Shown: positions 36,340-38,560 of the stretch, in pieces | Numbering within the stretch: position 1 is the stretch's first letter | How the letters are laid out: each line of letters opens with the position of its first letter | DNA from: Escherichia coli | GTDB taxonomy: Bacteria > Pseudomonadota > Gammaproteobacteria > Enterobacterales > Enterobacteriaceae | Assembly (NCBI RefSeq): GCF_003334305.1 | Contig: NZ_QOWS01000002.1 | DNA: 64,000 nt | Strand: one strand, 5' to 3' | Made by a program: the position numbers and the translations under genes | The notes under the pieces: generated by a model | Seen by the model: the letters and a program-made list of their open reading frames with translations, nothing else | Told to the model about the DNA's origin: nothing | The model's database searches: none

Positions 36340-36906
36340 TTATACTCCATAGTCAGATGACGACTTTCCCAGCATGCGCTTCAGAGTGTCGTCTTTATCG
36401 ATGAAATGATGCTTCAGGGCCATAAATCCGTGCATAACGGACAGTACTACGACGCTCCACGCGAGCCAAAAATGCAGGGCACCGGCAAAGTCTGCCTGTG
36501 CGCCAGCGTCGGCAAGGGTCGCGGGGACGTCAAACCAGCCAAAAACGCTGATCGGTTTACCATCGGCAGTTGAGATCAGATAGCCGCTGATGCCGATGGC
36601 GAACAGCAATAGGTACAATGCGAGATGTCCAGCCTTTGCGGCAAGACGAGTCATGGGCGAATAACTCGGCAGCGGACCCGGCGGTGGAGATATGACACGC
36701 CACAGAACGCGAATAACCAGCCCCATCATTAACAAAATACCGATGCTTTTATGCAGTTCGGGTGCTTTGTGATACCAGCCATCGTAATAACTGAGCGTGA
36801 CCATCCACAGACCTAAAGCAAACATGCCGTAGACAATAATTGCGCTTAGCCAATGGAAGGCCGCAGATATAACACCATAGCGTTCAGGGGTATTTGTGAA
36901 TGACAT
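36340..36906 (-). CDS. yceJ: Cytochrome b561 family protein YceJ
   Basis: Start placed at MSFTNTPERYGV; 188 aa. Confidence 0.9.
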   Translation of the reverse strand: MSFTNTPERYGVISAAFHWLSAIIVYGMFALGLWMVTLSYYDGWYHKAPELHKSIGILLMMGLVIRVLWRVISPPPGPLPSYSPMTRLAAKAGHLALYLLLFAIGISGYLISTADGKPISVFGWFDVPATLADAGAQADFAGALHFWLAWSVVVLSVMHGFMALKHHFIDKDDTLKRMLGKSSSDYGV

Positions 36907-37166
36907 AAGTGCATCCAATGCGAATTTGCGAGAGAAAGAAAATGGCGTGTCGGAGAATGAATTGCAACACAAAAATAACAAATTGAATGATATTTATTTT
37001 TATTTCAATAATTTTGAATTAATAATGAAAGAATCTTCATAAGTTTAGTGGGTTCAGCATCAGAGATGTCTGGTGAGTGCTGTAGAAGCAGGAATAATCT
37101 CATTCAATTTTTCACGCTAAATGAAAGGGAGATTAAATATTTGTCAGTTTATGTCAGTGCGGAAAA

Positions 37167-37307
37167 CTAAAAATAAAACACATAGATCAGATCCATAATT
37201 GCCAACAATCCCCAGAGAAAAAGATAAAGCATCAGATGCTCGCGAATATTATTGATGAGATAGTGCAACAGCCGACGCATTAAATACTCCTGTAAAAACG
37301 GCCTCAT
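37167..37307 (-). CDS. yceO: Small hydrophobic protein YceO (46 aa)
   Basis: Minus-strand [49 protein letters not shown]; below the size cut-off of the ORF track. Confidence 0.6.
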
Positions 37308-37327
37308 TCTGGAGGCCGTAATGATGA

Positions 37328-38446
37328 TTATTGGAAGCGGGAAAGCCTGAATGGCGTCAAATCAAAATCGCTTTTTTTGTCTTGCGCAAAATCGGCAGCT
37401 ATTTCCCCTAAAACTGACGCAAATTTAAAACCGTGCCCACTCAGGCCGGTAATGAGCAGTGTATTATCGTGGCCGGGTAGGGTATCGATAATAAAATCTT
37501 CGTCAGGCGAATTATCATAGGTGCAGGCAGCGCCGTACAGGCAGCAACCGATACCCGGCAATACATTGCGCAAGAACGGGAAGGCTTCCGAACCATCGCT
37601 GACCACTTCCGCAAACGGAACACGTTCATCCGCTGAATGGATAACCTGGCCTCCGTTATGTTTGCCAATCTTCAACGCGTCGTTTTCTGCCGGAAAACCA
37701 TAATATTGATCGCCATTGGGCAGTTCACCGGTAAACGCCGGGAATTTATTCTTCACGCTATAGCGGCCATCGGCCTGATACCAGGCAAATACTTTACGTA
37801 CGGGCTGGACAGGCAGCTCCGGGAGCAGGTCTTTTACCCATGTTCCCGCGCAGACAATCGCTTTTTTCGCCTGATACTCACCGTCAACGGTTTCAATAGT
37901 TACGCCATCATCGTCATGACGAATTGCGGTGACCGGGCAGTTGAACAGTTGCGCACAGCCCGCTTCCTTCGCCAGTTGGATCCAGGTTTTAATCGCCAGT
38001 TCGCTGCGCAAAAAACCGGAATCAGTCTCAAATAAGCCGATGTAGTTGTCCGGGACGCGTATTTCTGGCCAGCGGGCCATAATCCCTTGCGCATCGAGCT
38101 TTTCAACGTTGAGTTGCCACTGTTCGGCGCTGTGGGCGACGTTGGCGAGAAATGCGGAGTCAGCCGGGCCGAGGTTAATGACACCAGAGCGTACAAAAAT
38201 GGGATCATCTTCGTTGTGGCGGGAAAGTTCATCCCACAGCGTTTGCGCGCGGAGGACCAGCGGGACATACTTTTCGCCTTCACCATAAGCATGGCGAATT
38301 AATCGCGTATCGCCATGGTGGCTGCCGTGTTGATGCGGTGGCATATGGGCGTCGGTCATTAGCACGTTTAAACCGGCGCGGGTTGCATAATACCCGGCGG
38401 CAGCGCCTACGGAACCGCTGCCAATAATGATGAGATCGTATTTCAT
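37328..38446 (-). CDS. solA: N-methyl-L-tryptophan oxidase SolA
   Basis: N-terminal FAD fold [15 protein letters not shown]; recognised. Confidence 0.95.
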
Positions 38447-38560
38447 TTTTTTCTCTCTGCTCTCATGGTTTAAGCAGAGTAATTAACTGAATGCAGATAT
38501 ACAACCCAGAAATGGTAAAGGCACCGGTGAGGTGCCTTTTGGGTGGATGGTCATGTCATG

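Follow-up and report, generated by a model that had tools for sequence, protein, structure and literature searches.

The hairpin behind solA and the start of the small-protein gene yceO in Escherichia coli

The solA-yceO junction and its hairpin

The window, by which we mean the whole analysed stretch of 64,000 nucleotides, is made up of the E. coli region trhO-yceI-yceJ-yceO-solA-bssS-dinI-pyrC. According to the RefSeq annotation, pyrC, dinI, bssS, solA, yceO, yceJ and yceI lie on the minus strand and trhO is convergent to them. The DNA of window positions 36900-37700 is present in 5,425 of the 5,426 complete E. coli genomes searched by megablast. Window coordinates are converted into those of NC_000913.3 by adding 1,082,140, and the features discussed below are collected in Table 1. 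No terminator-like hairpin was found behind yceO, nor a stable one anywhere in the gap between yceO and yceJ (window 36906-37166). From Escherichia to Kosakonia (loci L005-L041) this gap measures 252-269 nt and mostly about 260 nt, and its near-constant length suggests a conserved promoter or leader region of yceJ. Within solA, the lowest synonymous-codon variability among 54 solA sequences was found in codons 188-201 (window ~37844-37885) and in codons 1-11, which may reflect an embedded element or simply a codon or structure constraint.

Table 1. Features of the solA-yceO junction in window coordinates
Feature	Position	Strand	Basis
solA (N-methyl-L-tryptophan oxidase) CDS	37328..38446	-	ORF list, RefSeq annotation of identical E. 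coli DNA
solA stop TAA	37330-37328	-	sequence
Putative terminator hairpin	37298..37319	-	sequence, energy, folds, compensatory changes in 48 species
Hairpin 5' arm ACGGCCTC	37319-37312	-	sequence
Hairpin loop CAGAAT	37311-37306	-	sequence
Hairpin 3' arm GAGGCCGT	37305-37298	-	sequence
T(U) tract TTTTT after the stem, first T able to pair with A37319	37294..37298	-	
ATG1, start of the legacy 46-aa yceO model (b1058)	37305..37307	-	NC_000913.3 annotation
46-aa yceO ORF	37167..37307	-	ORF list
Shine-Dalgarno AGGAG, 6-nt spacer to ATG2	37287..37291	-	sequence
yceO, conserved 37-aa form (ATG2 37280-37278, stop TAG 37169-37167)	37167..37280	-	
Rho-dependent region inside solA	~38279 (NC_000913.3 1120419)	-	PMC7815308

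On the minus strand, the stem-loop ACGGCCUC-CAGAAU-GAGGCCGU, followed by a run of U residues, begins 8-9 nt past the solA stop. Six inner pairs are extended by C37318:G37299 and A37319:U37298 to a stem of 7-8 bp, which contains six G:C pairs, encloses a loop of 6 nt and has a hairpin energy of -14.0 kcal/mol with 8 bp or -12.3 kcal/mol with 7 bp. The stem is thus as stable as expected of an intrinsic terminator, and the UUUUU on its 3' side likewise corresponds to the U-rich tract of such terminators in E. coli. The terminator-like structure GGCCTC-CAGAAT-GAGGCC reported after the solA stop in an earlier note, which was made from the sequence alone, is therefore present, with the energy given above and with covariation in 48 species; the description of its stem as 6 bp long falls short by the additional pairs.

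The hairpin is kept in both the minimum free energy (MFE) and the centroid fold of the junction, and the fold of the 76-nt junction has a z value of -2.2, which was equalled by 6 of 200 shuffled sequences. No competing fold of the antiterminator type appeared in the MFE or centroid structures in contexts of 76 nt and 137 nt, and an Rfam scan of positions 36700-38700 gave two chance matches elsewhere and no other match at E <= 1. Since there is neither a competing fold nor an Rfam match, and since the sequence upstream is the translated 3' end of solA, the element lacks the features of an attenuator or a riboswitch. In our own scan for hairpins followed by a T tract, 17 sites were found in the 64-kb window, including the one between solA and yceO. 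A consensus promoter and terminator scan of the window did not list it, we think because, with the first T engaged in the A:U closing pair, only four T remain in the tail window. A score of the d'Aubenton-Carafa type depends on whether A:U closing pairs are counted and was only used qualitatively. The hairpin has no second copy within the 64-kb window and is not a repeat.

Conservation of the hairpin and its role behind solA

The solA loci of 54 other species, from Escherichia to Siccibacter and Shimwellia, were compared, and a yceO homologue lies directly behind solA in 51 of them. A hairpin follows solA in about 50 enterobacterial species, in most of which it starts 2-12 nt past the stop, and the common layout consists of the solA stop, 2-12 nt, the hairpin, 14-30 nt and the yceO start, and yceO itself is followed by no terminator. 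In an alignment of 48 sequences, the nine stem pairs are formed in 85.9% of the cells as opposed to 31-54% when the columns of the 3' partners are slid. Double-sided changes occur in 34 cells of this alignment, a number reached by none of 500 shuffles, and compensatory exchanges, for example C:G to U:A, are found at four pairs (23:51, 24:50, 28:41 and 29:40), so that base pairing has been maintained as in an intrinsic terminator. Two more distant genomes (L066 and L067) carry unrelated stems at the same site (GTGGCGG/CCGCCAC and CAGGGC/GCCCTG), and one locus (L037) has solA, the hairpin and a T-rich tail, while yceO is absent. Escherichia and Citrobacter have a good U tract, and in Kluyvera, Leclercia, Kosakonia, Siccibacter and others it is weak or degenerate.

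Some of the compared loci are organised differently. In two Pseudocitrobacter loci (L044, L046) and in Kluyvera ascorbata (L045), REP-like palindromes of the GCCTGATGGCG...CTTATCAGGCC type are located between the solA stop and the hairpin, and despite these insertions the distance from the hairpin to the yceO ATG stays at 14-15 nt. The genes yceJ and yceI are absent in L042-L048, L050, L051, L056 and L057, which include Yokenella, Kluyvera, Pseudocitrobacter and Pluralibacter, and in these genomes yceO converges on trhO, with stops that overlap by 4 nt or are at most 13 nt apart. As an A tract precedes the hairpin there, the opposite strand reads as a hairpin with a U tract; yceO would then be wholly antisense within the 3' UTR of trhO, with the hairpin as a bidirectional terminator. 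A further locus, a 492-nt contig (L059, cov_0.75) of the Terrisporobacter petrolearius assembly, contains a fragment identical to residues 157-320 of E. coli SolA and is almost certainly a contamination of that assembly.

Because the stem-loop is conserved after solA with compensatory changes and persists where yceO is absent, it is assigned to solA. It is located just past the stop of this co-oriented gene and is retained together with solA in L037, which is the position of an intrinsic terminator. In sequence, position and covariation, the element agrees with an intrinsic terminator, and on these grounds we infer that it behaves like a Rho-independent terminator of solA. The curated and thresholded Term-seq lists of PMC7815308 contain no RNA 3' end in the range 1119200-1119599 of NC_000913.3, and solA is weakly expressed. 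The low expression of solA and Rho-dependent termination inside the gene could explain the missing 3' end. The same dataset shows a strong 3' end for the bssS terminator at 1120652/3, which is 65 nt before solA begins, and a region of Rho-dependent termination approximately 170 nt into solA (Table 1; PMC7815308, supplementary file 2; Adams et al., 2021). The available parts of the supplements of two other transcript-end studies (PMC12207403, PMC6131387) hold no entries for solA or yceO.

The start codon of yceO

Two start codons have been assigned to yceO, named here ATG1 and ATG2, and both the 46-aa and the 37-aa version circulate in protein databases. The 46-aa model beginning at ATG1 is kept in the legacy K-12 record NC_000913.3 and in some GenBank entries, and the RefSeq/PGAP CDS of 114 nt and 37 aa begins 48 nt after solA, which is ATG2. 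ATG1 lies in the loop and the 3' arm, as had been noticed before: its A and T are the last loop bases and its G is the first base of the 3' arm. ATG2 is in frame, 27 nt downstream of ATG1 and 19 nt past the stem, and is therefore outside the hairpin. The duplex with the anti-Shine-Dalgarno sequence reaches -6.9 kcal/mol for ATG2 as opposed to -1.7 kcal/mol for ATG1, which has no Shine-Dalgarno sequence, and in other genera a purine-rich motif with a median of -4.3 kcal/mol is found at the position of the Shine-Dalgarno sequence of ATG2. Since the conserved start and its Shine-Dalgarno sequence lie 3' of the stem, this is not a start occluded by RNA structure.

The protein family points to the same codon. 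The Pfam model PF10968 (DUF2770) matches with E = 3e-22 over its full length, its positions 1-36 of 36 corresponding to residues 10-45 of the 46-aa form or 1-36 of the 37-aa form, and this family does not share the nine-residue extension of the 46-aa model. NCBIfam gave no match for either form, and the name used by PGAP is "YceO family protein". The word-indexed protein search returned only relatives from Escherichia, and the distant ones came from a profile search of 1.84 billion representatives, which yielded only 63 clusters. Distant full-length members have 36-41 aa and match from residue 1, so that the ATG2 form, counted from its MRR... motif, has the size of the family (approximately 36-41 aa); N-terminally extended distant members carry 10-108 additional residues, and two of these contain the C-terminal sequence of SolA. 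In the loci L061-L064 (~1020-1800), which belong to more distant genomes with a DUF2770 gene, a gene for a 209-aa regulator of the GerE/LuxR type is located between solA and yceO, with solA and the regulator gene each having a hairpin of their own, and in L061 and L062 the yceO ATG is preceded, at a distance of about 30 nt, by a perfect TATAAT. A metagenomic contig has yceO 15 nt behind an MFS transporter gene, and the hairpin is absent there.

Each of the 52 sequences in which yceO adjoins solA keeps the 37-aa frame of the MRR type; the conserved start codon is ATG in 46 of them, GTG in 5 and ATA in 1, and the length is 37 aa in 44. The ATA is that of Citrobacter sp. wls619 (L026), which has a TTG one codon upstream, and in Salmonella enterica subsp. 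arizonae (L030) a premature stop cuts yceO to 22 codons. An ATG or TTG at the junction of loop and arm that is open to ATG2 occurs in Escherichia and in the C. freundii group, the extensions having 9 and 11 codons, respectively. Outside these two groups, the extension is absent, interrupted by a stop or out of frame; in 14 of the 52 sequences, the frame is closed by a stop codon that lies between the hairpin and the conserved start. Wherever a start-like codon is present upstream, the extension is 7-15 codons long. As neither frame nor length is conserved, coding constraint on the nine-codon extension was rejected. The shared reading "MRPFL" is accounted for by the conservation of GAGGCC and the T tract as RNA structure, because the substitutions are compensatory and not synonymous.

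On this basis, we hold with high confidence that ATG2 is the main start of yceO, and ATG1 is most likely an old annotation artefact of the K-12 model rather than a physiological start. ATG1 is probably an Escherichia-only by-product of the putative terminator, in which GAGGCCG-TTTTT-A reads ATG AGG CCG TTT TTA in frame, and the spurious nine-codon extension would have been taken up by an old longest-ORF gene model. In the literature, no start-site mapping was found for E. coli yceO. The proposal of the earlier note that yceO starts inside the hairpin and needs an alternative fold for its translation is not supported, given the position of ATG2 outside the stem and the lack of an alternative fold in the structures examined. 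The situation is like other start mis-assignments to the longest ORF, in that ATG1 lacks both a Shine-Dalgarno sequence and conservation and is not covered by the family profile, and in that the later PGAP start is located downstream. It differs from the usual errors of this kind because the extension of yceO is created by the terminator itself and mimics a regulatory overlap. With hairpin-occluded starts such as those of RNA thermometers and attenuator-type leaders, the junction shares an ATG1 placed partly inside a stable stem-loop; unlike these systems, it has no sequestered Shine-Dalgarno sequence, no competing fold, no leader peptide, no conserved occluded codon and no Rfam family.

Expression of yceO and alternative readings

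With a distance of only 19 nt between the stem and ATG2, there is no space for a promoter in this interval. The consensus scan, which covers sigma-70-like sites, found none near the junction, and the synonymous variability of the last 60 solA codons shows no dip among 54 sequences, for which reason a conserved promoter embedded in the 3' end of solA was rejected. Because no promoter was found near the hairpin or the ribosome binding site, yceO is most likely transcribed by read-through, and its mRNA is probably made at a very low level by polymerases that pass the solA terminator. The dependence of yceO on read-through, one of the two options of the earlier note, is thus plausible, there being no room for a promoter behind the terminator. 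The short tract of five U would favour read-through, and the position of the hairpin only 8-9 nt past the solA stop may favour it as well, as a terminating ribosome could hinder its folding. That yceO is translated at all, which had been left in doubt, is answered by PMC12529367, where YceO-SPA from the chromosome is described as detectable at a level at least 10,000-fold below pBAD-induced levels. The same study reports native YceO by top-down MS, and the YceO peptide was detected solely with the 46-aa ORF cloned in pBAD; this clone and the peptide standards alike follow the 46-aa model (PMC12529367, Table 1 and Fig. 7), so the peptide is no test of the native start. Overall, we consider it likely that the stem-loop is the solA terminator and that yceO encodes a protein of 37 residues which starts at ATG2 and is expressed from low-level read-through transcription.

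Other readings of the junction have to be weighed against this one. A promoter of yceO itself, situated in the 3'-terminal part of solA or sharing sequence with the hairpin, appears unlikely; it would make read-through irrelevant. In one such arrangement, transcription could start near G37299 from a -10 box formed by the loop CAGAAT, and the hairpin would then be part of the promoter or of the 5' end; the Escherichia loops (CAGAAT, TAAGTT, TAAATT, AATCAT, CAAAAT) indeed all fit xAxxxT. A separate upstream gene of the GerE family together with a TATAAT about 30 nt before yceO in the distant relatives shows that an own promoter is possible in principle, and a transcriptome study describes yceO as induced alongside acid-resistance genes with solA unmentioned (PMC8765455). 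However, the -35 candidates of the loop example (CCAATA, TCCAAT) match only two of six positions, the loops of Citrobacter and others (GTTGGT, GTAAT) do not resemble a -10 box, the sigma-70 consensus scan is negative and the last 60 solA codons are free of synonymous-site constraint. It is considerably less probable still that the hairpin is mainly an element of RNA stability or processing and not an efficient terminator on the solA strand, acting as a barrier to 3' exonucleases for the solA mRNA, as a 5' stem of the yceO mRNA or, where yceO converges on trhO, as a terminator of the opposite strand. This would fit the far wider conservation of the stem than of the U tract, the absence of the site from the Term-seq 3' ends of PMC7815308 and the constant distance of 14-15 nt to the yceO ATG behind REP-like insertions. 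It would also fit the A tract before the stem in Kluyvera, Yokenella, Pseudocitrobacter and Pluralibacter, in which trhO ends at most 13 nt from, or 4 nt into, yceO. In E. coli, however, the stem has no A-rich flank on its 5' side and is followed by UUUUU on its 3' side, judged by the same criteria the site is like the other terminators of the window, and L037 retains the hairpin and its T-rich tail without yceO.

The view to which we give the least credence, regarding it as highly improbable, accepts the 46-aa form as real, with a start sequestered in the terminator hairpin and a product made only upon read-through combined with refolding or melting of the stem. In E. coli, no stop interrupts the frame that ATG1 shares with ATG2, all eight Escherichia-group sequences examined have ATG or TTG at the position of ATG1, and the 46-aa form is annotated in K-12 records and some GenBank entries. 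Against it stand the missing Shine-Dalgarno sequence (-1.7 kcal/mol), the loss or interruption of the extension outside Escherichia and the C. freundii group, the Pfam model beginning at residue 10, the explanation of the MRPFL reading by an RNA structure whose changes are compensatory and not synonymous, and an alternative fold that was searched for and not found.

Beyond low-level read-through, the spacing between the solA stop and the hairpin allows a more specific, rather doubtful version, according to which the hairpin would be a ribosome-gated terminator that polymerases trailed by a ribosome read through, thereby making yceO mRNA. In the constructs of Li et al., which start from a distance of 8-9 bp, the translating ribosome repressed a terminator close to a stop codon almost completely, and full efficiency was reached beyond 30 bp from the stop (Li et al., 2016; PMC4824070). 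The solA hairpin, at 8-9 nt, lies in the range of near-full repression of tR2 in that study, which used a synthetic RFP-tR2 system, unlike the solA spacing, which is read from sequence. Since short distances between stop and terminator are common, the spacing at solA may not be selected. If ribosome gating were true, the tiny membrane protein YceO would report on active translation of solA. In Escherichia, the stem might also be melted by a ribosome that terminates at the solA stop and then reinitiates 20 nt further on, at ATG1 or the TTG in its place, so that a 46-aa proteoform would arise as a minor product.

At the rpsU-dnaG-rpoD and rplL-rpoB junctions of E. coli, intrinsic terminators between co-oriented genes are partly read through. 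The solA hairpin resembles such partial terminators inside operons: a GC-rich stem with a short loop and a U tract comes right after the solA stop, and the downstream gene yceO has its own Shine-Dalgarno sequence, no detectable promoter and a far lower product level. The comparison is by analogy, as termination and read-through at solA-yceO are, unlike in these operons, predicted from sequence. In further contrast to them, the downstream cistron encodes a 37-aa membrane protein, and in many genera the U tract has decayed while the stem persists.

The overlap between the hairpin and the start of yceO is most likely a gene-model error that has already been corrected by RefSeq and Pfam, and with the start corrected to the 37-aa form the apparent regulatory paradox is removed. 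In the K-12 reference records (b1058; 46-aa model), the start of yceO is probably wrong, and peptides and clones derived from this model, as in PMC12529367, may track a non-native N-terminus. This is an ordinary case that involves no new mechanism, and its main value lies in the curation of the yceO start in K-12. For the biology of E. coli, yceO is a further small-protein gene that seemingly depends on leakage through an upstream terminator, and such leakage behind solA would fit the very low native level of YceO.
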